Source: Candidatus Parendomicrobium reticulitermitis (GTDB lineage Bacteria > Elusimicrobiota > Endomicrobiia > Endomicrobiales > Endomicrobiaceae). Taken from it: DNA of 64,000 nucleotides. The stretch covers positions 26,023 through 90,022 of the forward strand of contig JAITTG010000087.1 of the NCBI GenBank assembly GCA_031287095.1. The letters are read 5' to 3'. The notes beneath the pieces are model-generated. The model worked only from the letters and a program-made list of their open reading frames with translations. It did no database searches and was not told where the DNA came from. Below, in pieces: positions 19,158 through 62,613 of this stretch; position 1 is the first letter of the stretch, and each line of letters starts with the position of its first letter. The position numbers and the translations under genes were made by a program.

Positions 19158-19897
19158 CACCACATTGAATGAAACTTATGAAATTTATGAGGATGTTTTG
19201 AGAAAAACGCATTGATTATTGCGCGGGTTTCCATAAGTTTTTTGAAATTATTCTTAATAAATAAGATTTTTTCTCTTAGATCTCTTGCGCAACTAACACA
19301 TAAGAATAGATGGACACTGTGTGCCCTACAACTATGCGCAAGGTAAACTCAGTTGCAGAGCGCAGGCTCAGATCCGTCGCGGAATCCATTTAAAAGTTCG
19401 TCATTCTCGAATGTCCTTGTATGGAATCCACTTTTGCCTAAGGCTGCATGAAATGTCCCGCCCCAGCCTGCGGATATTCTAAATGCTGGTAAGTAGAACG
19501 GCAGATAGAAAAGATGGGAGAGAAAAGACAACAAAAATAAAAAACAAATCTATAGACGCGCTACGCGCGTAAAAACAGAAAAAGAGAAAAATTGAATCAA
19601 AATCCCCAAAAAACCGAACCTTGTATGGGCGAATTTCAAATCTGTCCACCGTTACAAAATGCAAAACCGAAAATTTGATGAAGTTGAAATTGAAAACACA
19701 TTGAAAAATAAATATGAAAATTGAAATCAAAAATATAAAAAATCTGAACCTTGTAGGGTGGTTTTAATACGCCGTTTTGTAAAAAGCCCAATCGTTTTGC
19801 AAAATCTTATATCACAAAAATTTGTAATCAAATTAAGAATATCTCCGACATTATCAAATTTCACAATTATTCATTTATTTGTTGCGATTTTTACAAA

Positions 19898-21426: not shown

Positions 21427-21512
21427 AACTACCTAAAGAAAAAATAGAGGGATATTTTAAAAATCTACTAGGAGAACATCGCGCCAATTAGAATAAAGAC
21501 ATTGCCTTGAAA

Positions 21513-21802
21513 AGGGGGTGAAGGACGCAATGCGGGAGAGGGGACGCTAAAGTCAATCGCTACCCCCAAACCCTGAAAGGATTTAATGTAGTTAATAACC
21601 CCATATTGCCTGCAAGGCTATGCGGGGACAACAGGAGCGCGTCGCGACCCTCACCCGTAGTTGCGCGACACCTTCTCCTTCTCAATAGTCCCTTTTCCTA
21701 TCATATCCTCTCATATGGGAGAGAGACTTTGAAAAGCATGCCTTGAAAAGAGGGAGAGGGTCGCGAAAGCAGGAGAGGAAAAATAAGGAAAAAGGAGATA
21801 TT
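21513..21802 (+). promoter_or_regulatory. composite repeat-built leader of proS (one 82-nt two-hairpin element at 21548-21628 plus a purine-rich proximal module at 21728-21802)
   Basis: Same module order as the pyk leader. Ends in AAAAAGGAGATATTATG. Confidence 0.6.
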
Positions 21803-29654: not shown

Positions 29655-29904
29655 TTCGCAATCAGAATACAAACAATTTTAAAAGAGATTGGGCGGCATT
29701 TTCGTCATTGCGGGCTTGACCCGCAATCTCTGCTATCGCATTAGTTGTCAATTGCGCGCTTTGTCGTGTTTTCAGTCTGCGCATATCGCAGCGGCGGATT
29801 TCAAACCCGCCCAAAAAGTTGTCATTCTATACCGAGTCATTTTGTCTTGTCATTGCGCGTCCTGCGGCTTCACGCAGAATGACATATCAAAAAAGGAAAT
29901 TAAA

Positions 29905-30633
29905 ATGCCCCATTTTTATGTCTTACCTCAAAATACCGTCAATGGCAGTTTTTTTATGGAAGATGAACTCGCCCACTATGTTGCCGCCGTGCGTCGTTTT
30001 AAAGTCGGCGATGAAATAAATCTTTTTGACGGTCTTGGAAAATCTTTTAAGTGCGAAATTACAAGCATTGATAAAAACCGTATCAGCGGCAAAATTTTAT
30101 CTTCTTCGTATCAAAAGTCGTCTTTTGAAATCAATTTATATACCGCTATTCCCAAAGGCGAAAGATTTGAATGGCTTATAGAAAAATGCGCGGAACTCGG
30201 CATTTCAAAAATAATCCCTATAAATACTGCAAGAAGCGTTCTCACAGAAATTTCCGAAAACAAACTTGAAAGATTTAAAAGAATATCTATTTCGGCAAGT
30301 TCTCAATGCGGGCGCGCCGACATTATGGAAATTTGCCGTCCTTTGAATTTTCAAGACGCTTGCAAAAAAACCGTTTCAGACAAAACTATAAATATCTTGC
30401 CTTGGGAAAGTGAAAATAATCTGTCTATATTACAGGTTTTAAACGGAGAAACCTTAAAAGGCGGCAATGCCGCCGCTTTTATTGGACCCGAAGGCGGTTT
30501 TGAAAATTCTGAGATAGATTTTGCAAAAAGACTCGGCTTTCATACGGTAAGCCTTGGCAAAAACATTTTAAGGGTAGAAACCGCCGCCGTCGCTACAGCG
30601 GTATTAGTAATGTCGTCATTGCGCATATCGTAG
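29905..30633 (+). CDS. rsmE: 16S rRNA m3U1498 methyltransferase RsmE
   Basis: Start MPHFYV at 29905; the track ORF from 29689 reads through repeats. PUA-like N-terminus and a IGPEGGF SPOUT motif. The C-terminal SSLRIS is encoded by a repeat. Confidence 0.8.
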   Translation: MPHFYVLPQNTVNGSFFMEDELAHYVAAVRRFKVGDEINLFDGLGKSFKCEITSIDKNRISGKILSSSYQKSSFEINLYTAIPKGERFEWLIEKCAELGISKIIPINTARSVLTEISENKLERFKRISISASSQCGRADIMEICRPLNFQDACKKTVSDKTINILPWESENNLSILQVLNGETLKGGNAAAFIGPEGGFENSEIDFAKRLGFHTVSLGKNILRVETAAVATAVLVMSSLRIS

Positions 30634-30663
30634 GGGCGGGTTTCAAACCCGCCTATCCGCACG
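30630..30663 (+). repeat. GTAG-headed REP palindrome (GTAGGGGCGGGTTTCAAACCCGCC)
   Basis: Begins at the rsmE stop codon. Palindrome GGGCGGGTTT/AAACCCGCC preceded by GTAG. Confidence 0.75.
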
Positions 30664-30776
30664 ATTGACAAAAAACAAAAAGGCAAACGGCAGGCAAATA
30701 ATGATTTGCCGCTACAAACAACATAATATCGGTTGCGCAAGGGGACTAATCTACAACAATCAAGGACAATATCAAT

Positions 30777-31176
30777 AGACCTCTTGTATAATTGATATAC
30801 AAAAAATGTAAGAATATAAGGTTGTTATTGTGGACTTGCTATTCGTTGCGGGTTTGACCTGCGCGGTATAGAAAATATAAGCCATATTCAAATTAAGCGT
30901 CAATCTCGCAACCGCGGTAAAGCCGCGCCTATCGCATCATTCTCGAATGTTGCGCCAGCGCGTCATTCCCGAATGTCTCTGTCGGGAATCCATTTTTGCC
31001 ATTGCCTTTTTTAACTTGGATTCCCGATAACAAATTTCGGGAATGACGAATAAAAGGCTTGCCCTATTTTCAAGCGGGTTGATGACAACGGTAACTCGCT
31101 GTCATTGTGCGCCCCGCGATTTCGCGCAAAATGACAATGTCCGTCTATTTTTATATGTTGGTTGCGCAAGAGGTCT
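30777..31176 (+). mobile_element. non-autonomous TIR element (MITE), ~400 bp, carrying nested hairpin repeats
   Basis: Ends AGACCTCTTGT... and ...GCAAGAGGTCT are inverted repeats. Flanked by AAT (30774-30776) and AAT (31177-31179). Interior contains GTCATTCCCGA hairpins at 30962-30991 and 31018-31047. Confidence 0.7.
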
Positions 31177-31177
31177 A

Positions 31178-32329
31178 ATGAAAAAATTTTATATCTATTC
31201 TTTCGGCTGTAAAGTCAATCGTTATGAAACAGAACTCATATCGCAAAAATTAAAAAGCGGCGATTATGAAATAGCCGATACTCCCCAAGAGGCAGACGCA
31301 ATAATTTTTAATTCTTGTTCTGTCACAAACAATGCCGACAAAGAGTGTTTATATTTAATCAGGAAATCTTTAAAACTACCTCAAAAACCGCAAATCATTC
31401 TCACAGGGTGCCTTGCAATCAATAAATTTCAAGAGTTAAAAAAACTCTTTCCATCTATTGAAGTAATATCAGACAAAAAAACTTTATATTTACAGCCTGA
31501 CAATCAAAGCATAATCTCTTTTGAAAATCATCATCGCGCTTTTATCAAAATCCAAGACGGCTGCAATAGTTTCTGCTCATATTGCATAGTTCCTTATATA
31601 AGAAGCCAAATGTGGAGCAAGCAGCCGGAGGCTGTTCTTTCAGAAATAGAAAATCTCGTCAAAAACGGATACAGCGAAATAGTTTTGACAGGCATACACA
31701 TCGGCAAATACGAAGGCGGTATAGCCCCGCTGATAGAAAAAATAGTCAAAATCCCGTTGGATTTTAGAATCCGCATATCGTCCATAGAAATCAATGAAAT
31801 TAATGACTATCTATTGTCTTTGATGAAAGATTATGAAAACAAAATATGCTCTCACCTACACATACCATTACAATCAGGCAGCGGCGGTATTTTAAAATTG
31901 ATGAACAGACAATACGCAAGCGCCGTCTTTGAAAACAAAATCCAAAAAATTGCCGCTATGTTTAAAAACATAGCCATAACAACAGATATCATAGCTGGTT
32001 TTCCAAGCGAGACAAATGCTCAACACAAAGAAACTTGCGACTTTATAAAAAGAAATCCATTTTCAAGGCTGCACATTTTTAGATATTCAGACAGAAGCGG
32101 CGCAAAAGCCTCAAATTTCAAAAACAAAGTCCCGCCTCAAGAAATCAAAGCCCGTTCCAAAGAACTATTAGGAATAGACAAATCAAAAAGAAAAGACTTT
32201 TTAACGGCAAATACAGGCTCAACAAGAAAAGCAGTCAGCATATCTCCCAATGCATCTCTAACAGACAATTACATAACCATTTCAAACGCCGCATATCAAA
32301 AAGGCATTTTTGATATTAAAATAGAATAG
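31178..32329 (+). CDS. mtaB: radical-SAM methylthiotransferase, MtaB/MiaB-like
   Basis: Start MKKFYIYSFGCKVNRYE at 31178; the track ORF from 31043 reads through the MITE. UPF0004 domain and a CNSFCSYC rSAM cluster. Confidence 0.8.
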   Translation: MKKFYIYSFGCKVNRYETELISQKLKSGDYEIADTPQEADAIIFNSCSVTNNADKECLYLIRKSLKLPQKPQIILTGCLAINKFQELKKLFPSIEVISDKKTLYLQPDNQSIISFENHHRAFIKIQDGCNSFCSYCIVPYIRSQMWSKQPEAVLSEIENLVKNGYSEIVLTGIHIGKYEGGIAPLIEKIVKIPLDFRIRISSIEINEINDYLLSLMKDYENKICSHLHIPLQSGSGGILKLMNRQYASAVFENKIQKIAAMFKNIAITTDIIAGFPSETNAQHKETCDFIKRNPFSRLHIFRYSDRSGAKASNFKNKVPPQEIKARSKELLGIDKSKRKDFLTANTGSTRKAVSISPNASLTDNYITISNAAYQKGIFDIKIE

Positions 32330-32476: not shown

Positions 32477-32640
32477 AATTAGATGATTAAATGCGAGGTT
32501 TCTTAAAAGCGGACAGAAACAAAAACCGGACGAGAAATCGTCTTAAAATTAAATAAAACCATCCACAAATAAGGATAATTGCGGGTAGTTTTTATGTTTT
32601 ATAAGCAAATAGCAAGCAAACAATTGAATATAGATGCAAT

Positions 32641-32799
32641 GGACCTCTTGCATAACTGATATACAAAAAATGTAAGAATATAAGATTGCCGTTGTGCGCT
32701 AACAGAACTCATCAGTGCGAAAACAAGATTGTCATTCTGCGCGAAGCCGTAGAATGACACTATCCCTCTATTTTTATGTGTTGGTTGCGCAAGAGATCT
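32641..32799 (+). mobile_element. non-autonomous TIR element (MITE), minimal 159-bp copy
   Basis: GGACCTCTTGC...GCAAGAGATCT termini. AAT at 32638-32640 and at 32800-32802. Internal GTCATTCTGCG/CGTAGAATGAC hairpin. Confidence 0.7.
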
Positions 32800-32806
32800 A
32801 ATGGAT

Positions 32807-32858
32807 AAAAAACCGCGCAGGCTAAAAGCGTAATGCTTTTGGTTTGCGCGGTTTTTTT
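32807..32858 (+). terminator. compound stem-loop with flanking A/T runs
   Basis: AAAAACCGCGCA...TGCGCGGTTTTTTT with an inner AAAAGC-GTAAT-GCTTTT hairpin. Confidence 0.5.
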
Positions 32859-33029: not shown

Positions 33030-34355
33030 TTGAAAGACTTCTTTCCAACGCCCGCGCCTTTAAGGTCTGTCAAAAGCAACAGAACGCTAATTCCAAAGCC
33101 TGAACTTGATTTATACAGAGGCGAAGCCGACGATATAGCGAATATATCTAACCGCATAAAAATACTTGTAAAAGCAATCAAGGCGAACGGGTTTTATCCC
33201 GCAAGGTTTAAAGATTCAATAACGAAACTTGAAAACACCGACGACACGGAGTTGATAGCCGTAGATTTTGCCGACGATATTAGAGATTTAGGCGGCATAG
33301 ACAAGATGTTTCATTACAAGCCGATAGCGCAGTTTGAGCAAGTGGCAAAAGGATTATACGCTCAACAACAAAACTTAATCCAAGAGATATACGAGATAAC
33401 AGGGATAAGCGACATAATGCGCAACATATCCAAAGAAGAGACAGCCACAGCAACAAGACAAAAAGGCAAGTTTGGAAGTTTAAGATTACAACAAAGACAA
33501 TCGGCGTTAAACAATTACATCAAATCAATCTATACCATAGCGACAGAGTTAGTTTGCGAGTTATTTGACATAGACGCGTTAAAAGAAATCACATCAATGG
33601 CATTGCCTACAAACCAAGAACTTGCAGACTTTCAAACAAAACAGCAAACCGTTCAATCGCAATTTCAATCGGCAATGCAAGCCTATCAACAACAAATGCA
33701 ACAAGCGCAAGCGCAAGGACGGCAGTTGCAAATACAGGCTCCGCAACAACCGCAGGTTGCGCCGGAAGTATTAAAGTATTTTTCAAATCCCACATGGGAG
33801 AAGTTAAAGGAATACATAGAAGACAGCCGTTTACGCTCTTATTTGCTTGATGTAGAGACAAATTACAGCGTATGGGAGACAGATTTAGAAACGCAAAAAT
33901 CGCGCACAGAGTTATTTACAACAATTACGGACACCATACAAAAAGCGTCGCCGATAATAGCGGCAACGCCTGAACTTGCGGACATTTATATGAAGTTGAT
34001 TAGTTTCACCATAGACGGCTTTAAAGTATCAAGAAGCCTAAAGAACGGCATAGAGGACGCGTTGTTAGAGATAGTAGAGAACATAAAAAAGAAACAAGCG
34101 CAGCCTCCGCAACAACAGCCTGACGCTCAAATGCTGCTTGCGCAAGCGGAGATGAAAAAAGCGGAAGCGGAAGGCATAGTAGCAAAAGCAAGAATGCAGG
34201 AAGCTCAAGTAAAAGCAATGCAAGCGCAGGCGGAACTGCAACTTGAGCAAGCCAAAGTAAATATAGACACGCAAGCCAAACAAGCCGACATTCAACTTAA
34301 AGCGCAAAAGAATCAGATAGAGGCGGCAAAGCCGCTTTTTCCACAAACGATATAG
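33030..34355 (+). CDS. phage portal-like protein, probably N-terminally truncated
   Basis: TTG-initiated frame. Has ITGISDIMRN, a YLLDVETNYSV core and a long Q/A/K-rich C-terminal coiled coil of the kind seen in portal barrels. Gene order (portal, post-portal protein, scaffold) supports the call. Confidence 0.5.
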   Translation: MKDFFPTPAPLRSVKSNRTLIPKPELDLYRGEADDIANISNRIKILVKAIKANGFYPARFKDSITKLENTDDTELIAVDFADDIRDLGGIDKMFHYKPIAQFEQVAKGLYAQQQNLIQEIYEITGISDIMRNISKEETATATRQKGKFGSLRLQQRQSALNNYIKSIYTIATELVCELFDIDALKEITSMALPTNQELADFQTKQQTVQSQFQSAMQAYQQQMQQAQAQGRQLQIQAPQQPQVAPEVLKYFSNPTWEKLKEYIEDSRLRSYLLDVETNYSVWETDLETQKSRTELFTTITDTIQKASPIIAATPELADIYMKLISFTIDGFKVSRSLKNGIEDALLEIVENIKKKQAQPPQQQPDAQMLLAQAEMKKAEAEGIVAKARMQEAQVKAMQAQAELQLEQAKVNIDTQAKQADIQLKAQKNQIEAAKPLFPQTI

Positions 34356-34366
34356 GGTTATAAAAG

Positions 34367-35419
34367 ATGGATTACAAAGACATCACCCAACCCATACAAG
34401 CGGGCTTTAACAATTCAGATATAGGCATAGCGTTTAACCGCTCAATGCCGCGACCTGAAGAATACGAAAGATTAAGTCCGTTTAAAAAAGCGATAGCGGC
34501 AGGGGCAAGCATGGTAAGCGACAGTCCCGTATATATGCTTGGCGGGTTATTGGGCGCAGTAGCGGGCGGAGCGGGCGCGCCGATAGGAGCATTAGGATTA
34601 CAAAGAGGATATAGGCAATACTTAAACGAATTATACGGCAATGATGAAAACAGAAATACTGATATTATTTCAAGAGGCGCAAGGGTAGGCAGGGAGAGTT
34701 TATACGGAGCGGGCGAGGGTTTAGCGACGCAAAAAGCGGCTCAACTTTTAGGCAGCTTTGCTCCGCTTGTTTTAAACAAAATCGTAAATAAAAGAGTTCC
34801 GACGGTGAATGTAACTGACGATATGCTTATAAAACTTGAAAACAATTTACCTAATGGAATAAATAATCCTTTTTATAAATTCGTGCAAGACAATAGAAAA
34901 TGGATAGAGATGAAGCCTCAAATGGAATCAAATGCAGAAAGATATATCAACAATAAATTTGGAGTGAACAATTTAGACACTGCGGTAAAGGTAAAGTCGC
35001 CGATAGAGGATATAAACATAACGCCTGAATATTTGCAAAAACTTGTAAATCACCCGAGGGATATTCACAGAAACGAATTTGTTCCAGAGGCTTTGGCAAC
35101 TTTGGAAAGACCAAATCAGATTGTCAAAGATGCGCAAGGAAGGAATAATTATTTTAAATTGTTTTATGATGGAAAGTTTAAGCCTCATTTAAGCGGCGTT
35201 TCGCAGAAAGCAGATGAAACATTTTTCAATACAAGTTTTCCATTACAAGGCAGAAATATCACAAAAAGAATAGCGGGCGATACTATTTACCAAAAAAAAG
35301 ACGCCCCGCGGTGGGTAACACCGCGTGCGTCGACCCAATATATAGTAAATAATTCAAAAAGAATCAACGAGACAATGCGGAAATTGCTGGGCAGTTTTTA
35401 CAAGAAATATAAAAAGTAA
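34367..35419 (+). CDS. post-portal virion protein: Gly-rich membrane-like segment plus AT-rich C-terminal domain resembling phage PBECR-type nuclease modules
   Basis: Occupies the MuF/gp7 position. GGLLGAVAGGAGAPIGALG segment. C-terminal ...ITPEYLQKLVNHPRDIHRNEFVPEALATLERPNQIVKD... Composition switches from GC-rich to AT-rich near 34790. Confidence 0.45.
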   Translation: MDYKDITQPIQAGFNNSDIGIAFNRSMPRPEEYERLSPFKKAIAAGASMVSDSPVYMLGGLLGAVAGGAGAPIGALGLQRGYRQYLNELYGNDENRNTDIISRGARVGRESLYGAGEGLATQKAAQLLGSFAPLVLNKIVNKRVPTVNVTDDMLIKLENNLPNGINNPFYKFVQDNRKWIEMKPQMESNAERYINNKFGVNNLDTAVKVKSPIEDINITPEYLQKLVNHPRDIHRNEFVPEALATLERPNQIVKDAQGRNNYFKLFYDGKFKPHLSGVSQKADETFFNTSFPLQGRNITKRIAGDTIYQKKDAPRWVTPRASTQYIVNNSKRINETMRKLLGSFYKKYKK

Positions 35420-35488
35420 TCTGTGAGGTTCCACTCCACAAAAGATTTACAGGCAGTCAAACAAACAAAAGGAAAACAGGAGGAAGCA

Positions 35489-36601
35489 ATGGAAAACGAA
35501 GAAATTAACCCGACGGTAGAAGACGGAGCAATCCCTCAGGAGACGCAATCGGAACAAACGCAAGTAGAGGGGGACGCAGGCAAACCGACTGAGGTCAACC
35601 CATCCAAGAACGCTTTACAACTTGCCCTTGAAAAAGCGCAGAAGGAAATTGACGATAAAGACGCAGAGGAACAAAAGGCAAAACAAAAAGGAGCAGACGG
35701 CAAACAAGGCAAGGCGCAACCCAAGAAAGACGGCGAAAACAAAGACGATGACAAAACAAAAACGGACGACGGCAAAACTCCAAAGGTTCAAGACAAAGGC
35801 GGCAAGCAAGAGTTTGCGCCGCAAGAGCATTGGACTGACGAGCAGAAGGAGTTTTTTAACGGATTAGAACCGCAAAATCAAAAGAAAGTTTTAGATATGT
35901 ATAAGGGCATTCAAAAGGTTTACGAGAAAAAGACGCTTGACTTATCCAAACAGCAAAAGAGTTATGAGCAATTCAACAAAGCGTTTGAACCTTACGAGGA
36001 CATTTTCAAAAAGCAAAACATAGACAAAGGCGCATATATCAAGCAGATGATAGATTTAGACAGGCAGGCGACTGCAAATCCTGTGGAGTTTGCGATAAAG
36101 TTTATGCAGTCAAGGGGATTAAATTTAGACCACATAATTGCGGGCATACAACAGATGTCAAGCCCCGAGTATCAGCACATAGCGCCGTTAAAACAGAAAT
36201 TAGAAAGTTTGCAAAAGCAAATAGAAAGCGAGACCTCAAACAAAGAGTCTGTCAAGTTTGAGGGATTGATAGAAGAGTTTAAAAACGAGACGGACGAGTC
36301 GGGAAATTTGGCGCATCCATATTTTGACGAAGTGCAGGAACAAATGGCGCAAATCTCTACTGCTACTGGGGAGACAGACCTTGCCAAGATATACGAGCAA
36401 GCGTTATGGACTACGCCGGAAGTAAGAGCAAAGTTGATAGAAGCGGAAAAGCAAAAAGTAGCGCAGGCAAAACAAAAGGAAGACCAAGCAAAAAAGACGC
36501 AAGCGGCGGCGGGCTTGCACATCAAGAATTCAGCGGCTCCAGCCAATCCTCCCAAAAAGCAAGGATTGAGGAGCATAATAGAAGAACTTGATGGAGAATA
36601 A
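35489..36601 (+). CDS. phage scaffolding-like protein
   Basis: ATG at 35489 behind AGGAGG. Highly charged K/E/D/Q-rich, helix-prone, 370 aa, located after the portal module. Confidence 0.45.
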   Translation: MENEEINPTVEDGAIPQETQSEQTQVEGDAGKPTEVNPSKNALQLALEKAQKEIDDKDAEEQKAKQKGADGKQGKAQPKKDGENKDDDKTKTDDGKTPKVQDKGGKQEFAPQEHWTDEQKEFFNGLEPQNQKKVLDMYKGIQKVYEKKTLDLSKQQKSYEQFNKAFEPYEDIFKKQNIDKGAYIKQMIDLDRQATANPVEFAIKFMQSRGLNLDHIIAGIQQMSSPEYQHIAPLKQKLESLQKQIESETSNKESVKFEGLIEEFKNETDESGNLAHPYFDEVQEQMAQISTATGETDLAKIYEQALWTTPEVRAKLIEAEKQKVAQAKQKEDQAKKTQAAAGLHIKNSAAPANPPKKQGLRSIIEELDGE

Positions 36602-36618
36602 ACCGTCGTAAAGAAAAC

Positions 36619-36948
36619 TAAAGTCAATCGCCACAATCAAACCCTGAAAGGGTTTAATGAAGTTAATAACCCCGTATTGCCTGCAAGGCTATGCGGGGGC
36701 GATAAAGTCAATCGCAACAATCAAACACTGAAAGGGTTTAATGCAGTTAATAACCCCGTATTGCCACAGGCTATGCGGGGACGATAAAGTCAATCGCCAC
36801 AACCAAACCCTGAAAGGGTTTAATGCAGTTAATAACCCCGTATTGCCGCAGGCTATGCGGGGACGATAAAGTCAATCGCCGCACCCAAACCCTGAAAGGG
36901 TTTAATGTAGTTAATAACCCCGTATTGCCTGCAAAGGCTATGCGGGGA
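36619..36948 (+). repeat. four tandem copies of the 82-nt two-hairpin leader element
   Basis: Copies at 36619-36702, 36703-36784, 36785-36866 and 36867-36948. Stems conserved, linker and loop variable. Ends 15 nt before the rSAM ATG. Confidence 0.9.
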
Positions 36949-36963
36949 CACAAGGAAACCAAA

Positions 36964-38031
36964 ATGCAAAACTTTTTAAGGAACAAAATCAAAACCATTT
37001 TTATAAGTCTTGGCGGCGGGTGTAATTTGTCATGCTCTTATTGCTCGCAAAAAAAAGAACACATAGAAAACATAGCCGTCGTCAACAAAGACATATATAG
37101 ATTTATCAAAGAGCATGCGTCTTATCACAGCAAATCCGACAAATTAAAAGTCTTATTTTACGGCGGCGAACCGCTTTTATATTTTGACAAAATCAAAACC
37201 ATTGCCAAAAAAATCAAAAGCAAAAAAATACATTTCACAATAATCACCAACGGCAAACTATTAAATCAGGAAATAGTAAAGTTTTTAAATAAATATAAAT
37301 TCGGCGTTCAAGTGTCTTGGGACGGGCGGGCAAGTTTAGAAAGCAGAGGCTTTGACGCCGTGAAAGAAAAAAAGGATTTATTGTTTAAACTAAACTCAAT
37401 GTCGTTCTCGTCTATTATCACGGACAAATTGAGATTAAAAGATTTAGTTGAGGATATTGAAACATTCAATACAGAGTATGCCAAACGCAATAACGGGCGT
37501 ATTGCTAATGCAATAGTTGACGCTGTTAGAGACAGAAATAATGCCGCAGGACGCATAGATTACAATGTATTAGAGCAAGACATGAGAGACTTGATTAAAA
37601 GCGTATTTGTAGAAGGTAAAAACGAGTCGTTTAAATATTGGTTTAATTTAGAGTTTAAAAATTTAAGAAACTTTATAACCGTTTATAAAGACAAACAAAG
37701 CGTCCTGTCTCCTTGCCCTGAAGGTTTGCAGCATATCAGCATAAATTTGAAAGGAGACATTTTGCATTGCCATAATGCAAGCGGCATAAACGGGACTATA
37801 TACAGCGATTATTATGAGTATTTAAGCAAGGTATTGAGTAAAACCAAGTCCTGTCAAGAAGGCGCTTTCTGCGAAGTATATTCATTATGTAAAGGCGGGT
37901 GCAAACTTGCCAATGCGCTCGGCGAAAATACGGACATATATTGCCAATCGCGCAAAGCGTTGTTAAAACCGATTTTAGAGTTTGTATCTTATTTACATTA
38001 TGCGCTAACAAAGGAGGTTGTAAATGTTTGA
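36964..38031 (+). CDS. radical SAM enzyme with C-terminal SPASM-like Cys cluster domain
   Basis: GCNLSCSYC (CX3CX2C), a GGEPLL motif, and C-terminal CPEGLQHISINLKGDILHC...CQEGAFCEVYSLCKGGC...C. Start at 36964; the track ORF from 36823 reads through the repeat array. Confidence 0.8.
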   Translation: MQNFLRNKIKTIFISLGGGCNLSCSYCSQKKEHIENIAVVNKDIYRFIKEHASYHSKSDKLKVLFYGGEPLLYFDKIKTIAKKIKSKKIHFTIITNGKLLNQEIVKFLNKYKFGVQVSWDGRASLESRGFDAVKEKKDLLFKLNSMSFSSIITDKLRLKDLVEDIETFNTEYAKRNNGRIANAIVDAVRDRNNAAGRIDYNVLEQDMRDLIKSVFVEGKNESFKYWFNLEFKNLRNFITVYKDKQSVLSPCPEGLQHISINLKGDILHCHNASGINGTIYSDYYEYLSKVLSKTKSCQEGAFCEVYSLCKGGCKLANALGENTDIYCQSRKALLKPILEFVSYLHYALTKEVVNV

Positions 38032-38827
38032 AATTAGAAATAATACGCAAACCCAAAATTCAAAAGATGAGACAAAATTAAGTTTAAATTTAAAAGGACA
38101 AAAACTCTTTATCAATGTAGAAAGAGAGGACGCTCAATTTAACGAAGTATTAAATTTAAAATCTTATTCTATGTATAAAGTATTTCAGACAGATAATGAA
38201 CCTATATACTTTGTAGATGTCAACAGAATAACTTCGCTATTTAGACTGCCCAGAAAAGATTATAAGCAATTGCCAAATGACTCGGGCTATATCTTTTCCA
38301 TTAAAACGGGAATGATTTCAGACAGCGTCCGCGATATTCTAATAGACAATAAAGACATAAAAAAAGAAAACATCAAAATAATATCGGATATGCCTTACAA
38401 TCAATCGGATTTAGACTTTAAACTAAAACTCGCCATGCAAGACAAAACGCTTCTTGATTACTTTTCTCTATCTGCAAACGGGCAGGAATACAAAGCCGAC
38501 AGCGCAGGCAATAATATAGACGGCGATTTTGACAAACCGATAATCCCGCTTTATACCGATGGCAAAAGCAATTTACCCTTTGCAGAGTTTGTCATTCAAA
38601 AATATCTGCGCCGTTTTGAAGCGCCTTTAAACAGAGACATAGACAATGACGAAGTAACCGTTGAAAGTTCGGCTGGTTTAGTAAATACGCGGCGCGCATA
38701 TATGCAAAACGGCATTACAAAATTCAGGCTTTATCCTTTCGGTTATGAGGGCAAAATCAAAATCAAAATCGGACGGCGTTGGTATGAAAACTTAAACGAA
38801 TACAATTTAATTTTAGGCGGCGCATAA
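38024..38827 (+). CDS. hypothetical protein, translationally coupled to the rSAM gene
   Basis: 8-nt overlap with the rSAM stop. 267 aa, no Cys, very AT-rich like the rSAM gene. No family recognised. Confidence 0.5.
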   Translation: MFEIRNNTQTQNSKDETKLSLNLKGQKLFINVEREDAQFNEVLNLKSYSMYKVFQTDNEPIYFVDVNRITSLFRLPRKDYKQLPNDSGYIFSIKTGMISDSVRDILIDNKDIKKENIKIISDMPYNQSDLDFKLKLAMQDKTLLDYFSLSANGQEYKADSAGNNIDGDFDKPIIPLYTDGKSNLPFAEFVIQKYLRRFEAPLNRDIDNDEVTVESSAGLVNTRRAYMQNGITKFRLYPFGYEGKIKIKIGRRWYENLNEYNLILGGA

Positions 38828-38834
38828 AATAATG

Positions 38835-38862
38835 GCAGGGGCGAACCTATATGTTCGCCCGC
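38835..38862 (+). repeat. REP palindrome GCAGGGGCGAAC-CTATAT-GTTCGCCC
   Basis: Stem variant of the GGGGCAGAC...GTCTGCCCC family; both arms changed together. Confidence 0.7.
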
Positions 38863-38886
38863 AAAACAAACAACAGGAGGCAACAA

Positions 38887-39678
38887 ATGAACGGACAATT
38901 TACCAATCCCGCGCCGCAAATATACGGCGACGGAATTTTTGCAAACTATGTTAGGAACTCAAAAAACGCAAGCGGCAACGCTTTAGCCGCCGCATTACAA
39001 GCGGACGCCGACAAAAAGAAATCAATGCAAAATCCCGGCGGTAAAAGTTATGCGACAAGCAAACTTGAAGAAGCGGGCAAAATGGGCGCGGGCTATGTAA
39101 GCGGTTTAGCAAATGTATTAGCGGGCGTTTCGCAAGGGCATGACGCAAACAAACAAAAAGAATACGACGCGTATAAAAACGAGAAATTAGCAAACGCCAT
39201 GGCTACAGGCGACGCTTCAAGCGCGGTAGAGTTTGACGCGGACTTGGCAAAAACTTTAGCCGAAAACAATCTCAAAAAACAACAAGCCGCCGAGAAAATG
39301 GCTTTTGATAAAGAAATGAATCAAAGCAATCAAGATTATGATTATCAAAAAGTATTAGGCAGTTACGGACAGCAAAGCAAAGAAAACGCCGCTCAAAGAA
39401 AACTCCAATGGGACATAGCAAACCTAAAAGACGCAAGCGCAGGCGGCGGCGATGACAAGACAATAGCGGGAATGCCCGAGAAAGCCTTTTATGAGTTATA
39501 CAACAAATTAAGTCCGAAAGACCAAGCGCAAGTATTGCAAAAACCCGACCTTATACACGCAAGCAAAAACAGAGGCTTTTTTGGTTCAAAACTCGGCGCA
39601 GGCAAACATAGCGCGGTATTGGGCAAAGGCGCGCCTCAAACAGCGCAAAATCCCTACGCGTCAAAATATGGCTTTTAA
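38887..39678 (+). CDS. low-complexity A/K/Q/G-rich phage protein (internal virion protein-like)
   Basis: ATG at 38887 behind AGGAGG. GC-rich like the phage backbone. The last 11 codons are duplicated downstream of the REP at 39680. Confidence 0.45.
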   Translation: MNGQFTNPAPQIYGDGIFANYVRNSKNASGNALAAALQADADKKKSMQNPGGKSYATSKLEEAGKMGAGYVSGLANVLAGVSQGHDANKQKEYDAYKNEKLANAMATGDASSAVEFDADLAKTLAENNLKKQQAAEKMAFDKEMNQSNQDYDYQKVLGSYGQQSKENAAQRKLQWDIANLKDASAGGGDDKTIAGMPEKAFYELYNKLSPKDQAQVLQKPDLIHASKNRGFFGSKLGAGKHSAVLGKGAPQTAQNPYASKYGF

Positions 39679-39679
39679 T

Positions 39680-39706
39680 GTAGGGGCGAACCCATGTGTT
39701 CACCCG
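39680..39706 (+). repeat. GTAG-headed REP palindrome inserted at a gene junction
   Basis: GTAGGGGCGAAC-CCATGT-GTTCACCCG, flanked by diverged ~33-nt direct repeats (39646-39678 and 39710-39741). Confidence 0.75.
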
Positions 39707-39753
39707 TCTCAAAATCCCTATGCGGGAAATATAGTTTTTAACAAGAGGATTAT

Positions 39754-42207
39754 ATGAATAAAAATTTAGCGCAGATTAGAAACAATGTAGGCATAATGCT
39801 ATCCAAAGGCGCGCCGGAAGAGGATATAGACGGCTATTTAGCCAGCGTAGGCTCAAACGCCGACGAAATCAAAAACTATAAAGACCCGGGCATAGTATCT
39901 GCCGGCTTGTTTGCAAATGCCGCCGAAGGCGCGACAGTAGGTCTTGCCGATGTGTTATACGGCGCAGGCGGCGCGTCATTAAAGAAGTTCAAAGACGCCG
40001 TCAGCGGCAACGATAACAGTCCCAAAATAACAAGGGGGCTTTCAGGTTTTACTCTTATAAACGACGGCGACAATAAATTGAGGCAAGCCACAAAAGAGGA
40101 AGACGACGCAAACAAAGCGTCATGGAGCAACCTATTTAACGAATACAGAAAAGACTTTAACGATACCAAAAATCAATACAATGATTATCACGGCGCAATC
40201 GGCACGGTGGCAGATGTGGCGGGCAGTTTTGCTCCTATCATATTAACAGGCGGCGCGGGAGCATTAGTCAAAGGCGGCGCAACGGCTGGCAAAGCGGGTT
40301 TAGGTCAATTAGCAAAACAAGGATTTAAAACAGGCGGCAAATGGGGCGGCGCTTACGGCGCGGGCAATGGTTTAACAGAAGGGGACGAATTGTCAATCGG
40401 CAACGCTTTATTAGGCGGCGCAACAGGTTTAGGTATGGGAGCGGCAGGCGGGGCATTATTGCCTGTATTGGGTTCTTTTGCGGGCAAAGCGATAAAACCT
40501 TTTACAAAGCAAGGCAAGTTTGACAGATTCGCAAAAAAAATCGGGATGGATAAAATTGACGAGTCAATAGAAAACAATAGACCGCTTATAGAGAATGCCG
40601 ATGAGAATATAATGTCAATGGCGGAAGGAGCAGGTCTTAATAATGTCGGCGCCCGTCAAATACTGCATGACTATGCCAATATAAGAAAAGGACAGCAAGT
40701 AGGCATAATTGACGACCAAATAAATAATACTTTTGGCGCAAAAGGCGCAGACGCAGTGACAAGAGAGATTGAGGAAGCGGGTAAAAGAGAGTATCAAATG
40801 CTTTATGATAAGGCACTAAACCAGCCTCACGGCGTTATACCTAATTTAGAACCAACCTTAAAAAACCCGCGCATTGCCAAAGCGTTAAAAGTAGTCCGCA
40901 AAGAATATCCCGAATACGACCAATTTCCAGACACGCATATACAAGTGCTTGACTTAGTTAAACAACAATTAGACGACGATATAGCCAAAGCGGTGAATTT
41001 TAATGAAAAGTTAAAAGCAGGCTTTTTACTTGAAGCAAAAGATAATTTAGTAGCGAAACTTGATAAAGCGTCGCCAATATACAAAGAGGCAAGAGGTTCA
41101 TTTGCCGGCATGAAAGATTTGCAATCTTTTGTTGATAAAGGCAGAAACTACAACAAAATGACAAGAGAAGAGATAGAGGAATTATCTAAAACTTTAACGC
41201 CGGAAAACAAAAAAGCCTTTAATGCCGGCATAAGAGAAACGCTTATAAAGAACCTTGACGACGGGGCAAAGAGCGAGGGTGTAAATGTTGCAAGGCGGGT
41301 ATTTGACGACAGCACTTTACGCAAACTTGAAGGATTGGGCATAGACGATTTTCAACAATTAAAAGACATCATGCTTAAAGAAAGGCAAACAATGCAAAAC
41401 ATCAATCGCTTTGCAAGCGGCAGTCAAACAGCGGAACGAGAAGCCGATAAACAATTTAGGCAAGCCTTGCCTGTAAAAATGATTTTTAACCCAATCCGCA
41501 CAGCTAAGAAACTTACAGAAAAAGCATATTTAAAAGCATTAGGTTTAGGCGATGAAGAGATTGCAAGATATTTGACAAATACAGGCGCGCTTGCGAAAGC
41601 AAGGAGCGGAGGAACATCAAGCCGTGTAAATATCAATCCAGTATTTACAAAAGGCTATTCTGCCACGCAACTCAAAGATAAGGCAATAAAAAATGAAATA
41701 CGAGATAAATATGCCGATTGGTATAAGAATAATTTACAAGGTGAGAAATATCAAAAAGAAGGGTTAGAAAGCGATATAGATTTTAATAGATTTGGTAAGA
41801 ACGAACCTCAAAGCAATAGCGCTTATATAAATAAGTTGGACTTTGGAAAGTATGCAAAAGAATTGATTGATACAGGTAAATTAAGTGGTCAAAAGAAACT
41901 GAAACACCCAAGTGAGCGATATAAGTATTTTAAGAATATTTATACTCCCGTAGAATATAACGGAAAGAAAATGAAATCAAGCATATTTTTAGGTAAAAAT
42001 AAATTTGATTCAGGCTATACCTATCACGATTTTTCGCCTATGGATTATAGTGTCATTGGGGATTATCTTTATAACAGACCAGCAGATAATAAACTCAATG
42101 ATATAACAAAGTTACTTGGAAGTTTTGCAGGAATAAAACAAGATTTAGTAAGTAATCCTATCAGAAAACTGCTTGGAAGTTATGAATATTTATTAAGGAA
42201 AAAATAA
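39754..42207 (+). CDS. large multi-domain virion protein (polyvalent/ejection-protein-like) with an AT-rich C-terminal module
   Basis: 817 aa. Gly-rich segment at aa 150-245. Composition switches to AT-rich near 41640. LGSFA-type motif recurs four times. Confidence 0.45.
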   Translation: MNKNLAQIRNNVGIMLSKGAPEEDIDGYLASVGSNADEIKNYKDPGIVSAGLFANAAEGATVGLADVLYGAGGASLKKFKDAVSGNDNSPKITRGLSGFTLINDGDNKLRQATKEEDDANKASWSNLFNEYRKDFNDTKNQYNDYHGAIGTVADVAGSFAPIILTGGAGALVKGGATAGKAGLGQLAKQGFKTGGKWGGAYGAGNGLTEGDELSIGNALLGGATGLGMGAAGGALLPVLGSFAGKAIKPFTKQGKFDRFAKKIGMDKIDESIENNRPLIENADENIMSMAEGAGLNNVGARQILHDYANIRKGQQVGIIDDQINNTFGAKGADAVTREIEEAGKREYQMLYDKALNQPHGVIPNLEPTLKNPRIAKALKVVRKEYPEYDQFPDTHIQVLDLVKQQLDDDIAKAVNFNEKLKAGFLLEAKDNLVAKLDKASPIYKEARGSFAGMKDLQSFVDKGRNYNKMTREEIEELSKTLTPENKKAFNAGIRETLIKNLDDGAKSEGVNVARRVFDDSTLRKLEGLGIDDFQQLKDIMLKERQTMQNINRFASGSQTAEREADKQFRQALPVKMIFNPIRTAKKLTEKAYLKALGLGDEEIARYLTNTGALAKARSGGTSSRVNINPVFTKGYSATQLKDKAIKNEIRDKYADWYKNNLQGEKYQKEGLESDIDFNRFGKNEPQSNSAYINKLDFGKYAKELIDTGKLSGQKKLKHPSERYKYFKNIYTPVEYNGKKMKSSIFLGKNKFDSGYTYHDFSPMDYSVIGDYLYNRPADNKLNDITKLLGSFAGIKQDLVSNPIRKLLGSYEYLLRKK

Positions 42208-42355
42208 AAAAAGAGTCGTTCAACGGCTTGCACTCAAAGGCAAGATATTAAAGCGACTCTTTTCTTACACGCGTGCTGGCGAGTGAATTCCCTCACCAAC
42301 GATAAGTGAATATATAAAAAATCTTTTTTAATGTCAACAAATAGGAGGTCACAAA

Positions 42356-42661
42356 ATGCAACAAATACCAATCCACACAGACGGCAAACCTGAAGGCGAG
42401 ATGTCGGCGTTTTGCCTATGCAAAGAGGGCAACGGCGCAGTTCTTGAAACCATAGGTTTAACAGAAGGACAAATCCAAATTGAAATGACGACATTTCAAG
42501 ACAATTACAAGTCTTGCGCAGACGACGACGGCAACCCCTTAATAATCACGCCGACAGACAATTTGATAGTTGAATTAGAAAACGCGCCATACTACATAAG
42601 GGCGATGTATGACGGCGCCCAAGACGCAAGCGAAATAACAATAGTATTAAGGAGGCAATAA
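42356..42661 (+). CDS. hypothetical small acidic phage protein
   Basis: 101 aa, strong AGGAGG SD. Its stop overlaps the next start (TAATG). Confidence 0.45.
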   Translation: MQQIPIHTDGKPEGEMSAFCLCKEGNGAVLETIGLTEGQIQIEMTTFQDNYKSCADDDGNPLIITPTDNLIVELENAPYYIRAMYDGAQDASEITIVLRRQ

Positions 42662-42963
42662 TGGGATTTTGGAAAAAACATTTCGGCAAAACCAGCGGCG
42701 CAGTAAAAGCCGCATGGGGCAAAATAACAGGCGACATAGATGCTCAAACGGACTTGAAAGATAAACTTGACGGCAAAGCAGACATTGCCAACACTTACAC
42801 AAAAGCCGAGACAGACGAAGAAATAACAAACGCTCAATTAGCAACACAGCAATGGCTTCCTGCGGTTGATACAAAAGCATTTGTCATATTTATCAAGGAG
42901 CGTATATTCTATAAGTTTGATTGCTATGTTTACATCGGATTCTTTTTCCTCGTGTCTTTGTAA
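42661..42963 (+). pseudogene. N-terminal fragment of a phage tail-fibre-like protein
   Basis: DIDAQTDLKDKLDGKADIANTYTKAETDEEITNAQ is a common tail-fibre N-terminal pattern. After about aa 72 the frame turns into AT-rich nonsense, which marks a deletion junction. Confidence 0.45.
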
Positions 42964-42989
42964 ACAGCCGGTAGTGGGCGTTGAACAAT

Positions 42990-43304
42990 TTAGATATTTT
43001 CTTTGTTATTACATTTTGTTATTGATTTATATTTAAAGTTTCCGAGAATGATTTCAATGTTTAAAAAATTTAATGCAAATAGATATGTTTTATGTCTTTG
43101 AACAGAAGCAATCCCTATATATTTTGCTAATGCAGAAAAGTGTATGATTTCTGCATTTGTTTTATCATCAGTATCATTTAAAAAAGATTCAATAAGCGTT
43201 CTATAATTAATCCATTTTATAGGACTCTTAAACTTGCGCTGATAAATGTTTATTTTATGATAGTAATTAAATCCATCTATTAACGCTAAAATTCTGTTTT
43301 TCAT
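42990..43304 (-). pseudogene. NYN-domain (LabA-like) protein fragment
   Basis: MKNRILALIDGFNYYH... N-terminus is typical of NYN nucleases. Only about 104 aa, ending before the usual C-terminal part. Confidence 0.4.
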
Positions 43305-46385: not shown

Positions 46386-46449
46386 CTTGAAAAAGTCCAC
46401 AAAGCATTTTGAGGCAAACGACGGAGATTGCGGCTCAAGCCTGCAATGA
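46369..46449 (+). repeat. 81-bp double-hairpin element with GTCATTGCGG...CCTGCAATGAC inverted termini
   Basis: Overlaps the uvrA stop. Homologous element at 48207-48285 overlapping the tgt stop. Single hairpins at 29639, 29704, 30615, 58120, 10830 and 11675. Confidence 0.75.
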
Positions 46450-46554
46450 CAAAACTGATTGTAAGATGACGCTATAAATTATTTATAAATTTTTAGTTTT
46501 CTCGTTCAATATGATATAATTGCCGCGGTTTTGAAGCATTGTCGGCAGTTCTTT

Positions 46555-47081: not shown

Positions 47082-48221
47082 ATGCAAATAGGAGATTGGC
47101 AGTTTTTAAAAAAATCTTCCGAGTGCCGCGCAAGATTGGGGAAAGTTTTTACTTTGCGCGGTATTATTGATACGCCCGCTTTTATGCCTGTGGGAACGCA
47201 AGGCAGCGTTAAGGGCGTGCCTATGGAATTTTTAAAGAATTCTAAAGCGCAGATTATTCTTGCTAATTCTTATCACTTATATTTGCGTCCGGGAACTGAA
47301 ATTGTCAAAAATGCCGGCGGCATACAAAAATTTAATTCTTGGGATAAACCTATGCTTACCGATTCCGGCGGGTTTCAAATTTTTAGTTTAAACGATATTA
47401 GGAAAATCAAAGACGACGGAGTAGAATTCAAATCCCATATAGACGGCTCAACTCACTTTTTTTCTCCCGAAAAATCTATGCAAATTCAAAAAGATATAGG
47501 CGCGGATATTATCATGGCTTTTGACGATTGCACTCCTTATCCCGCCGATTATGACTATGCAAAAAAGTCTATGGAATTAAGCCTCAAATGGGCGGCAAGA
47601 TGTAAAGAAGAATTTTATAAAGACGATTCTTGCGATAGGCAGGCGCTTTTTGGAATTGTGCAAGGCTCTGTTTATGATGATTTACGCAAAATCAGCGCTG
47701 AATCTATGCAGGAAATTGATTTTGTAGGCTATGCCATAGGCGGTCTTTCCGTAGGCGAGCCGAAAGAGGATATGCGCAGAATTTTAGATAATATATGTCC
47801 AATTTTGCCTGATAATAAAGCGCGCTATCTTATGGGCGTTGGTATGCCTGAGGATTTATGGGAATGCGTTGAGCGGGGAATAGATATGTTTGATTGCGTA
47901 ATCCCGACGAGAAATGGGCGCAATGGACAGGTTTTTACAAGTCAAGGCAAAATCAATATAAGAAATGCCCAATATAGACAAGACTTTACCGCTCTTGACC
48001 CAGACTGCGATTGTCCCGCCTGCAAAGGATATACAAAAGCATATCTCAATCATTTAGTCCGCGCCCAAGAAACTTTATATCTCGCTCTTTTATCCGTCCA
48101 CAATATATATTTTATGCTAAATCTAATGGAAAAAATAAGGCAATCCCTTGCTAACGACGCATTCTTTGAAGCCAAAACAAATTTTTTCAAAAATTATTAT
48201 AAGTCGTCATTACAAGTTTGA
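47082..48221 (+). CDS. tgt: queuine tRNA-ribosyltransferase
   Basis: TPAFMPVGTQGSVKG, LTDSGGFQ and a CDCPAC zinc motif. The C-terminal SSLQV-stop is encoded by a repeat. Confidence 0.95.
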   Translation: MQIGDWQFLKKSSECRARLGKVFTLRGIIDTPAFMPVGTQGSVKGVPMEFLKNSKAQIILANSYHLYLRPGTEIVKNAGGIQKFNSWDKPMLTDSGGFQIFSLNDIRKIKDDGVEFKSHIDGSTHFFSPEKSMQIQKDIGADIIMAFDDCTPYPADYDYAKKSMELSLKWAARCKEEFYKDDSCDRQALFGIVQGSVYDDLRKISAESMQEIDFVGYAIGGLSVGEPKEDMRRILDNICPILPDNKARYLMGVGMPEDLWECVERGIDMFDCVIPTRNGRNGQVFTSQGKINIRNAQYRQDFTALDPDCDCPACKGYTKAYLNHLVRAQETLYLALLSVHNIYFMLNLMEKIRQSLANDAFFEAKTNFFKNYYKSSLQV

Positions 48222-48342
48222 CCCGCAATATTCCCGCGAAGCGTTTTGAGGCAAACAATAACGGAGATTGCGGGGCAAGACAGCAGGCGGCGGAAGGTAA
48301 AAACGGATTTTTAGGCAGCCTCGTTTATCACAAGGAATTATT

Positions 48343-49796: not shown

Positions 49797-49826
49797 GTCA
49801 TTCCCGAATGTCTCTGTCGGGAATCC
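49797..49826 (+). repeat. hairpin repeat GTCATTCCCGA-ATGTCTCTG-TCGGGAATCC
   Basis: Identical to 30962-30991 and nearly identical to 14868-14895 inside larC. Degenerate copies at 19399 and 59990-60060. Confidence 0.8.
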
Positions 49827-54165: not shown

Positions 54166-54195
54166 GTAGGGGCAGACCCATGTGTCTGCCCCTAG
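54166..54195 (+). repeat. GTAG-headed REP palindrome GTAGGGGCAGAC-CCATGT-GTCTGCCCCTAG
   Basis: Perfect 9-bp arms. Inverted copy at 62748-62775; stem variants at 38835, 39680 and 55516. Confidence 0.8.
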
Positions 54196-59848: not shown

Positions 59849-59916
59849 GGAAACGCGAATTAATTTATTGAATGCCTTTAGCCATGCGCAATGACGAGTT
59901 AACTATATTTGATAAT

Positions 59917-60128
59917 AGCCCTCTTGCATAACTGGTATACAAAGAATGTAAGAATATATCTATTGTCATTGCCAAAAATCGCCCACAATGCGTCATTTCC
60001 GAAAGTTGTTATCGGAAATCCAAGTTAAAAACAACGGCAAGTGGATTCCCGACAAAGACGCTCGGGAACGGCGGAGGCGCACAATGACAATGTCCGTTTA
60101 TTTTATATGTCGGTTGCGCAAGAAGTCT
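59917..60128 (+). mobile_element. non-autonomous TIR element (MITE), 212-bp copy with nested hairpin repeats
   Basis: AGCCCTCTTGC...GCAAGAAGTCT termini. AAT at 59914-59916 and at 60129-60131. Confidence 0.7.
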
Positions 60129-60153
60129 AATTAGCGTTTCCATAAGTTTTGCG

Positions 60154-60649: not shown

Positions 60650-60665
60650 TTGTATCTCCTTGTGT

Positions 60666-62600: not shown

Positions 62601-62613
62601 AACGGCTCCTTGT

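Follow-up and report, generated by a model that had tools for sequence, protein, structure and literature searches.

REPs are single palindromes of 20-40 nt with a GTAG head, which typically occur as inverted pairs and are linked to RAYT genes, and REP/BIME sequences that lie in operon transcripts can stabilize or attenuate the mRNA. ERIC and Correia elements are inverted-repeat (MITE-like) elements of 100-150 bp with target duplications. MIRUs, as reportedly set out by Supply et al. in 1997, are tandem units of 40-100 bp in operon spacers. REP and BIME sequences are extragenic hairpin repeats, and ERIC and Correia elements have orientation-dependent effects on co-transcribed mRNA, exerted via RNase E or RNase III sites (PMC3049150). 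MIRUs are placed at start codons in such a way that downstream expression is preserved, by means of a small ORF that is coupled, at -4 nt spacing, to the start of the downstream gene (PMC12548453). The BOX element of Streptococcus pneumoniae is a modular composite, boxA-boxB(n)-boxC, with an internal module that varies in tandem; it is predicted to form stem-loops when transcribed, is thought to influence co-transcribed genes, and clusters with other repeats (PMC3049150). BOX has terminal inverted repeats, is found in both orientations and is enriched between convergent genes (PMC3049150).

The 82-nt repeat described here works most like pneumococcal BOX and is also MIRU-like, while being a member of neither. 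As with BOX, it is an intergenic repeat that varies in tandem number and appears to be modular, with unit layouts L-S-S-L and S-S-L and a distinct head and tail. Unlike BOX, it has no inverted termini, it lies sense-only between co-directional genes at the loci sampled, and the whole 82-nt unit is amplified; no sequence relation between BOX and the element has been shown. As in MIRU, tandem units lie at start codons in the spacers of operons and run in the same direction as the genes on either side, but the element has no conserved ORF, ends in a Shine-Dalgarno sequence, belongs to a different phylum and has no sequence similarity to MIRU. Like REP and BIME sequences, it is extragenic, hairpin forming, multi-copy and found in mosaics with other motifs; unlike REPs, it is 82 nt long, with two unrelated hairpins, direct tandem copies and no conserved GTAG. 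The inverted-repeat ends and target duplications of ERIC and Correia elements are absent, and the orientation dependence of those elements is a plausible reason for the orientation bias seen here. The sequence family is new and undescribed, and its kind is well known. Its only unusual traits are the sense-only orientation and the ribosome-binding-site tail, which rest on five or six loci.

A four-unit array at a radical SAM gene

Within the window, by which we mean the whole 64-kb stretch of DNA analyzed, array A occupies positions 36619-36949 on the plus strand, where Tandem Repeats Finder (TRF) reports a period of 82, 4.0 copies, 92% matches and a score of 533. The array and its immediate surroundings read as follows.

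35423-36601, plus strand: upstream ORF of 392 aa, no family match, within a prophage remnant
36619-36702, plus strand: array A unit 1, subtype L, hairpin-2 loop TGCAA (TRF; nhmmer, 96 bits; covariance model, 109.7 bits)
36703-36784, plus strand: array A unit 2, subtype S, loop ACA, with AAACAC making hairpin 1 weaker (TRF, nhmmer, covariance model)
36785-36866, plus strand: array A unit 3, subtype S, loop GCA (TRF, nhmmer, covariance model)
36867-36949, plus strand: array A unit 4 (terminal), subtype L, loop TGCAAA (TRF, nhmmer, covariance model)
36950-36963, plus strand: 3' tail of array A, ACAAGGAAACCAAA, in which ACAAGGAA is the Shine-Dalgarno site of the radical SAM gene
36964-38031, plus strand: radical SAM gene, 355 aa from ATG 36964 (Pfam PF04055/PF13353; phrog_1802)

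The four units, of 82-84 nt each, abut directly head to tail, and a gap of 17 nt separates the first of them from the stop of the upstream ORF (36601). Each unit runs from a head, TAAAGTCAATCGC, through a variable linker, a 6-bp hairpin (hairpin 1) and a conserved linker, AATGnnGTTAATAA, to a 12-position hairpin (hairpin 2). By pair counting, hairpin 1 (AAACCC/GGGTTT) has six pairs per copy, or five in copy 2, and the 12 positions of hairpin 2 comprise, in every copy, 10 Watson-Crick pairs, one G-T pair and one T-T mismatch. The predicted fold of unit 1 has two hairpins at -30 kcal/mol (z -3.4), and the Shine-Dalgarno sequence ACAAGGAA of the radical SAM gene is unpaired in the predicted fold. 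For the core motifs, the window has 3 and 8 occurrences versus 0 in 100 shuffles.

A first-pass annotation, made from the letters of the sequence, had described the four-copy array with its unit boundaries, the linker variants CACAAT, AACAAT, CACAAC and CGCACC, the loops TGCAA, ACA, GCA and TGCAAA, a lone AAACAC change in copy 2 and two hairpins per copy. The sequence bears out each of these points, with TRF agreeing on the array and pair counting on the hairpins, for which RNAalifold independently returns the same helices.

Array A lies within a prophage remnant that holds an N-truncated portal gene (phrog_12082, 3e-84), a PBECR2 domain and the phage-type radical SAM gene; the remnant has a high AT skew, and its neighbors are an mtaB-like gene and uvrA. 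Homologues of the radical SAM protein are 350-356 aa long. The public annotation starts the gene at ATG 36823, inside unit 3 of array A, which yields a protein of 402 aa, and this gene call is probably 47 residues too long. The homologues L007 and L008 (39-40% identity) have a different neighborhood and offer no empty-site comparison for array A.

Copies across the window

Searches with nhmmer and with an unfiltered covariance model agree on 10 full copies at 5 loci in the 64-kb window, which also contains one partial copy. These copies are 64-95% identical to one another, and the loci hold 1, 1, 1, 3 and 4 units. Apart from array A, they are the following.

13497-13578, minus strand: solitary diverged copy E, 129 nt 5' of the pyk ATG (13367) (nhmmer, covariance model)
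21548-21631, plus strand: solitary copy B, subtype L, 171 nt 5' of the proS ATG (21803) (nhmmer, covariance model)
60662-60906, minus strand: array C, three units, between gltX and DUF1844 (nhmmer, covariance model; TRF, 60665-60886)
60825-60906, minus strand: array C unit C1, subtype S
60743-60824, minus strand: array C unit C2, subtype S
60662-60742, minus strand: array C unit C3, subtype L
62613-62696, minus strand: solitary diverged copy D, with the tail AACAAGGAG just 5' of the gltX ATG (62600) (nhmmer, covariance model)
62711-62749, minus strand: degenerate partial copy upstream of D, hairpin 1 region retained and hairpin 2 collapsed (nhmmer, E 5e-4)

The covariance model with filters off found no further copies in the window. 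Its only new match, at 9616-9711 (23 bits), is an ordinary bidirectional terminator-like hairpin. The names pyk, proS, DUF1844, gltX and radical SAM, assigned to the flanking genes beforehand, are supported by Pfam. The element occupies spacers of both housekeeping and prophage-derived (foreign) genes.

The first-pass annotation had also placed the element just 5' of the start codon at all of these genes. At the radical SAM gene, DUF1844 and gltX this is so, with 14-16 nt between the end of hairpin 2 and the ATG; at proS (171 nt) and pyk (129 nt) it is not, and a second repeat lies in between. The B (proS) and E (pyk) loci have in common a composite of ~270 nt, 74% identical end to end, in which a purine-rich repeat stands on either side of the 82-nt element and the GC hairpin that follows it, with a Shine-Dalgarno site last. 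Because both copies sit in one composite, proS and pyk are not independent examples.

Two unit subtypes are distinguished by the hairpin-2 loop. L units have a loop of 5-6 nt (TGCAA) and include A1, A4, B, C3, D, E and a copy in Endomicrobium sp. Hs463_bin78 described below; S units have a 3-nt loop (GCA or ACA) and include A2, A3, C1 and C2. S units are closer across arrays than to the L units within the same array: identity to C1 is 88-90% for A2 and A3 and 82% for C3, and A4 is closest to B, at 94%. Array A is laid out as L-S-S-L and array C as S-S-L, each with an L unit last, although there are two arrays to judge from. The same caution, two arrays only, goes with the BOX-like character of this layout, in which S units are internal, an L unit is last and a distinct tail follows.

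At least four other REP-like palindrome families are present in the same window, in both orientations relative to genes. The genome has classical REP-like sequences with GTAG heads.

Orientation and tail

All five loci in the window lie between co-directional genes, and both nhmmer and the covariance model place every copy in the sense orientation, as had been claimed for 5 of 5 loci. The genes of the window form five strand blocks, and the orientation of the element flips with them (E minus, B plus, A plus, C minus, D minus). As orientation changes with gene strand, it follows transcription and not a fixed replication direction; GC skew follows gene strand in the window too. The Hs463_bin78 copy is also sense-oriented, which brings the known loci to six in total. 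With B and E sharing a composite, the orientation rule amounts to ~5 independent events, for a two-sided p of about 0.03-0.06. Spacers in the window are almost all co-directional, and because all loci lie between co-directional genes, a position 5' of a start is indistinguishable from one 3' of the upstream stop.

The last unit of an array, or a solitary copy, can be followed by a short tail, which is GGGGACACAAGGAA at A, GGGGACACAAGGAG at C, and GGGGAACAAGGAG at both D and the Hs463_bin78 copy. In array C, the sequence ACACAAGGAG is found just 5' of the DUF1844 ATG (60649). The consensus of the last-unit tails is A(C)ACAAGGAR; it provides the Shine-Dalgarno site at A, C and D, where it lies 5-7 nt from the ATG. 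The motif ACAAGGAR occurs 6 times in the window, preceding the start of 3 of the 3 element-abutted genes versus 2 of ~50 others (Fisher p about 4e-4). Copy B retains ACAACAGGAG with no start codon after it, and at the element-free orthologous sites in a close relative the Shine-Dalgarno sequence is AAAAAGGAG instead. Going by these sequences, we assign the tail to the element with moderate confidence; the tail ACAAGGAG could also be a preferred insertion target and not a part of the element.

Folding, conservation and covariation

RNAalifold predicts both hairpins from all 11 known copies, and 87.9% of the pair cells in these copies are standard pairs. Individual copies differ by age. The young copies beat shuffles in folding, with z from -1.9 to -5, whereas the diverged solitary copies do no better than shuffles (B, z -0.32; D, z +0.41; E, z -0.25). 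Sense and antisense folding energies are similar. A strand-of-folding test, with 10 G-U cells versus 7 A-C cells, separates neither sense from antisense nor RNA from DNA.

Invariance of the stems in array A had been read as the pattern expected from selection on structure. This reading is not supported, as the copies are recent duplicates, 89-95% identical, in which the stems are no more invariant than the head, the hairpin-1 loop or the unpaired mid-linker. Across all loci, the unpaired 14-nt mid-linker AATGnnGTTAATAA has a mean majority fraction of 0.92, compared to 0.92-0.94 for the stems. Covariation, which had been put forward as a test of the structure, is weak: the RNAalifold covariation term across the 11 related copies is +0.58, meaning no net support, and the compensatory changes are three in number, each in a single sequence. 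These involve three pairs with one change each, all in D or E, a result reached by 3 of 500 shuffles. The occurrence of compensatory changes in old copies, together with the conserved unpaired linker, is a hint of constraint beyond neutral decay.

Distribution in relatives and sequence collections

By protein matches, the closest relatives are Endomicrobium MAGs, and site occupancy differs between them. In L002, which has a GltX 92% identical and the same gltX-DUF1844 arrangement, the element is found neither upstream of gltX nor in the 105-nt spacer; both the gltX upstream region and the gltX-DUF1844 spacer carry other REP-like hairpins there. Among more distant relatives, the proS spacer of L003 is 32 nt long and the element is absent from it. 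Unrelated sequence takes its place upstream of proS in L004 and around gltX in L005 and L006, and no copy is present in ~70 kb of other Endomicrobium loci.

Beyond these relatives, a degenerate pattern that recovers 8 of the 10 window copies gave one match in 185,579 species genomes, in Endomicrobium sp. Hs463_bin78. This copy follows a moeB/thiF-like gene, lies 40 nt from the contig end and has the tail AACAAGGAG. Metagenome contigs, scanned with two degenerate patterns, and viral contigs had no match, nor did phage and plasmid records searched with blastn. Across all collections scanned, the element was found in only two genomes, its known range being one narrow Endomicrobium-related lineage.

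Comparison with described classes

The statement in the first-pass annotation that this is not a described RNA family agrees with Rfam at both thresholds used. At gathering score, the whole window yields two tRNAs only, and on the array at E<=10 the best matches reach 16-19 bits versus thresholds of 46-80. A literature search for Endomicrobium repeats gave no match.

Several classes can be set aside on the anatomy and distribution of the element. A conserved riboswitch-like leader is contradicted by absence from the orthologous gltX, DUF1844 and proS sites in relatives, and a CRISPR array is excluded by units that abut head to tail without spacers. The element is not a MITE, since its ends, TAAAGTCAATCGC and GCGGGGAC(A), are not complementary and the flanks of the 5 loci show no common duplication. 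It does not match a REP or REPIN either, as the unit is 82 nt long with two different hairpins, all copies are direct tandem, and GTAG is found in 2 of 10 copies (A4 and B). No transposase was found among the 20 window ORFs scanned against Pfam. As with MIRU, dispersed units co-oriented with their genes lie in co-directional spacers (5 of 5 window loci and Hs463_bin78), but the MIRU-type coupled internal small ORF is excluded, with no conserved ORF present. A coding or peptide role is likewise excluded: the period of 82 nt is not divisible by 3, and the ORFs that begin at a conserved ATG differ in both reading frame and length, with ATG-TAG in copies A4 and B. A CsrA-type GGA-loop decoy is ruled out by the lack of GGA in either loop.

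Scans of all loci for signals of separate transcription were negative. The best promoter-like sequence is a single 9-of-12 match, within shuffle expectation, and on neither strand is there a terminator in the form of a hairpin with a following T run; hairpin 2 is followed by ACGATAAAG, not by a T run.

Discussion

We consider it likely that the element is a lineage-specific, non-coding, small interspersed repeat of a composite, BOX/MIRU/BIME-like kind, which can be amplified in tandem and is co-transcribed and tolerated by way of its ribosome-binding site. Such an element would spread into the spacers of transcription units, and its arrays would grow and shrink by unequal recombination or slippage. 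It would be transcribed within the flanking mRNA, as suggested by the lack of a promoter or terminator in the units themselves. The tail of the final unit, A(C)ACAAGGAR, would act as the ribosome-binding site of the downstream gene, such that insertion into a tight intercistronic spacer would spare downstream translation. As judged from sequence features, co-transcription and tolerance through a supplied ribosome-binding site are probable, and the latter would parallel the tolerance of MIRU through its coupled small ORF.

The stable hairpin located 3-5 nt upstream of the ribosome-binding site may stabilize the downstream cistron or insulate it. REP, BOX, ERIC and Correia elements offer analogies (PMC3049150) that make an influence on mRNA stability or on translational insulation plausible, and such an influence would be a by-product or modulatory and not a dedicated regulatory circuit. 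What most likely lies behind the sense-only bias is either selection against antisense copies within transcription units or a requirement that the tail point toward the gene. An antisense copy would place a GC hairpin and then UUAUUAAC inside the operon, with no ribosome-binding site, and would be selected against.

It is possible, if rather doubtful, that the element acts as a portable cassette between cistrons. This would be a mobile and structured RNA module that carries a Shine-Dalgarno sequence of its own and puts it in place of the native ribosome-binding region of the gene behind it, with the number of internal S units tuning mRNA stability or translational coupling. We find it unlikely that the element is a 5'-UTR RNA dedicated to cis regulation. 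Such a structured leader, to which a common protein or sRNA might bind, would co-regulate pyk, proS, gltX, DUF1844 and the radical SAM gene, and its effect would scale with copy number. The sense orientation at every locus would fit such a regulator, as would the end of hairpin 2 at 14-16 nt before the ATG of three genes with the Shine-Dalgarno sequence unpaired. The linker AATGnnGTTAATAA, unpaired and conserved like the stems, would suit a binding site, and the three compensatory changes carried by D and E, both diverged copies, point the same way. A dedicated role is nevertheless contradicted by the absence of the element at orthologous gltX, DUF1844 and proS in relatives, its narrow range of two genomes across the collections scanned, its variable copy number, the location of one array in prophage-derived DNA, and the distance to the start codon at proS (171 nt) and pyk (129 nt), where a further repeat intervenes. 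The covariation term of +0.58, the failure of B, D and E to fold better than shuffles, and the lack of a functional link among the target genes argue against it as well.

The hairpins might alternatively be recognition sites for an enzyme, in which case the element would be a single-stranded hairpin DNA element of REP/RAYT type or an IS200/IS605 miniature, moved by a trans-acting Y1 (HUH) transposase, with the insertion mechanism setting its orientation. The directional unit, with two different subterminal hairpins and no terminal inverted repeats, is in keeping with this idea, and so are the classical GTAG-headed REP-like sequences in the genome, the differing occupancy between relatives, and the about equal numbers of G-T (10) and A-C (7) cells, which leave the fold not clearly RNA-strand specific. 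Yet the orientation of the element changes with gene strand three times in 64 kb, unlike replication-strand-directed insertion, only 2 of the 10 copies have GTAG, the copies are direct tandem and never inverted pairs, and no transposase gene was identified beside any copy among the 20 window ORFs scanned. Weighing these, we find mobilization by a Y1 transposase unlikely, a little less probable than the 5'-UTR regulator. That the units are tandem sRNA genes, each transcribed separately, is very improbable: their sRNA-like size, tandem order and stable hairpins would allow it, but the promoter-like 9-of-12 match is within shuffle expectation, hairpin 2 leads into ACGATAAAG with no hairpin and T run on either strand, and there is no Rfam match.

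The small interspersed repeat that we favor adds an undescribed family to the poorly studied phylum Elusimicrobiota, in the Endomicrobium lineage, and the intergenic DNA of the source MAG emerges as a mosaic of at least five repeat families. It opens no new regulatory principle. Its arrays could serve as VNTR-like strain-typing markers for uncultured symbionts, and, if the tail is real, the element would be an example of a repeat that invades tight operons without silencing the downstream genes. Were the cassette explanation true, it would represent a third route for a selfish repeat in operons, besides the coupled ORF of MIRU and neutral 3' placement, in which a site encoded by the element, placed immediately behind a protective hairpin, would direct translation of the downstream cistron, and it would naturally generate variation in expression in a lineage of gut symbionts undergoing genome reduction.

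The radical SAM gene and its setting

A prophage remnant with an unusually high AT skew (0.27-0.35) occupies about 33030-43000 of the window, flanked by an mtaB-like gene and uvrA. It includes a phage-type radical SAM (rSAM) gene, a portal truncated at its N-terminus (phrog_12082), a protein with a PBECR2 domain and an 817-aa protein with an LPD3 domain. The public rSAM protein, MDR3049555.1 (402 aa; 36823-38031), starts at an ATG within A3, the third unit of the repeat array preceding the gene; rSAM homologues are 350-356 aa long, and a Shine-Dalgarno site lies 5' of the ATG at 36964. The N-terminal 47 residues annotated in MDR3049555.1 are probably an artefact derived from the repeat.

The nearest rSAM homologues, at loci L007 and L008, share 39-40% identity, and directly 5' of them are ORFs with Cys-rich C-termini (...NCNCGCC...), that of L008 being absent from the gene calls:

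L007, about 2490-2521: Cys-rich C-terminal end of the ORF
L008, about 4230-4278: Cys-rich C-terminal end of the ORF

Together, ORF and homologue resemble a precursor peptide paired with its radical SAM maturase; the window's rSAM gene has no ORF of this kind next to it.

Other repeats and hairpins

Besides the 82-nt element, the window holds four REP-like palindromic families, oriented both ways relative to genes, and a two-part module in three copies, CAATAGACCTCTTGYATAAYTGATATACAAAAAATGTAAGAATATAAG followed at variable distance by AATGACAATGTCCGTCTATTTTTATATGTTGGTTGCGCAAGAGGTCTAATG:

10830-10853, 11675-11698, 29704-29727, 46427-46450, 48206-48229: family GTCATTGCGGGCTTGACCCGCAAT
14868-14895, 19400-19427, 30962-30989, 49797-49824, 60045-60072: family GTCATTCCCGAATGTCTCTGTCGGGAAT
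2843-2867, 29788-29812, 30630-30654: family GTAGGGGCGGGTTTCAAACCCGCCC
39680-39705, 54166-54191, 62750-62775: family GTAGGGGCAGACCCATGTGTCTGCCC, found too in the close relative's locus L002 (about 1670-1695)
30773-31186, 32637-32809, 59913-60131, all +: CAATAGACCTCTTGYATAAYTGATATACAAAAAATGTAAGAATATAAG/AATGACAATGTCCGTCTATTTTTATATGTTGGTTGCGCAAGAGGTCTAATG module

The module looks promoter- or leader-like, with two of its three copies terminating at candidate start codons. Between convergent genes at 9676-9712 lies a bidirectional terminator-like hairpin, AACCCCATATCGC-GGGATA-GCGATATGGGGTTTTTGTTT, the sole additional match in the window (23 bits) of the covariance model built from the 82-nt element; its stem opens with AACCCCATAT, as does hairpin 2 of copy B, the element upstream of proS.

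Repeat-laden upstream regions

Several repeat types are piled up in the gltX-DUF1844 spacer, which measures 469 nt in the window versus 105 nt in the close relative; beside array C of the 82-nt element it carries 3.6 copies of a 20-nt, TAGGTTTGTCATTGCG-like tandem repeat (60997-61066).

A composite upstream region of ~270 nt, 74% identical, is common to proS and pyk:

21500-21802, +: upstream of proS
13368-13600, -: upstream of pyk

The purine-rich repeat ATGCCTTGAAAAGAGGGAGAGGGTCGC, which occurs again at 21502-21528, is part of it, together with the 82-nt element and a GC-rich hairpin; several GGAG motifs in it resemble Shine-Dalgarno sites. An entire upstream module appears to have been duplicated between unrelated genes.
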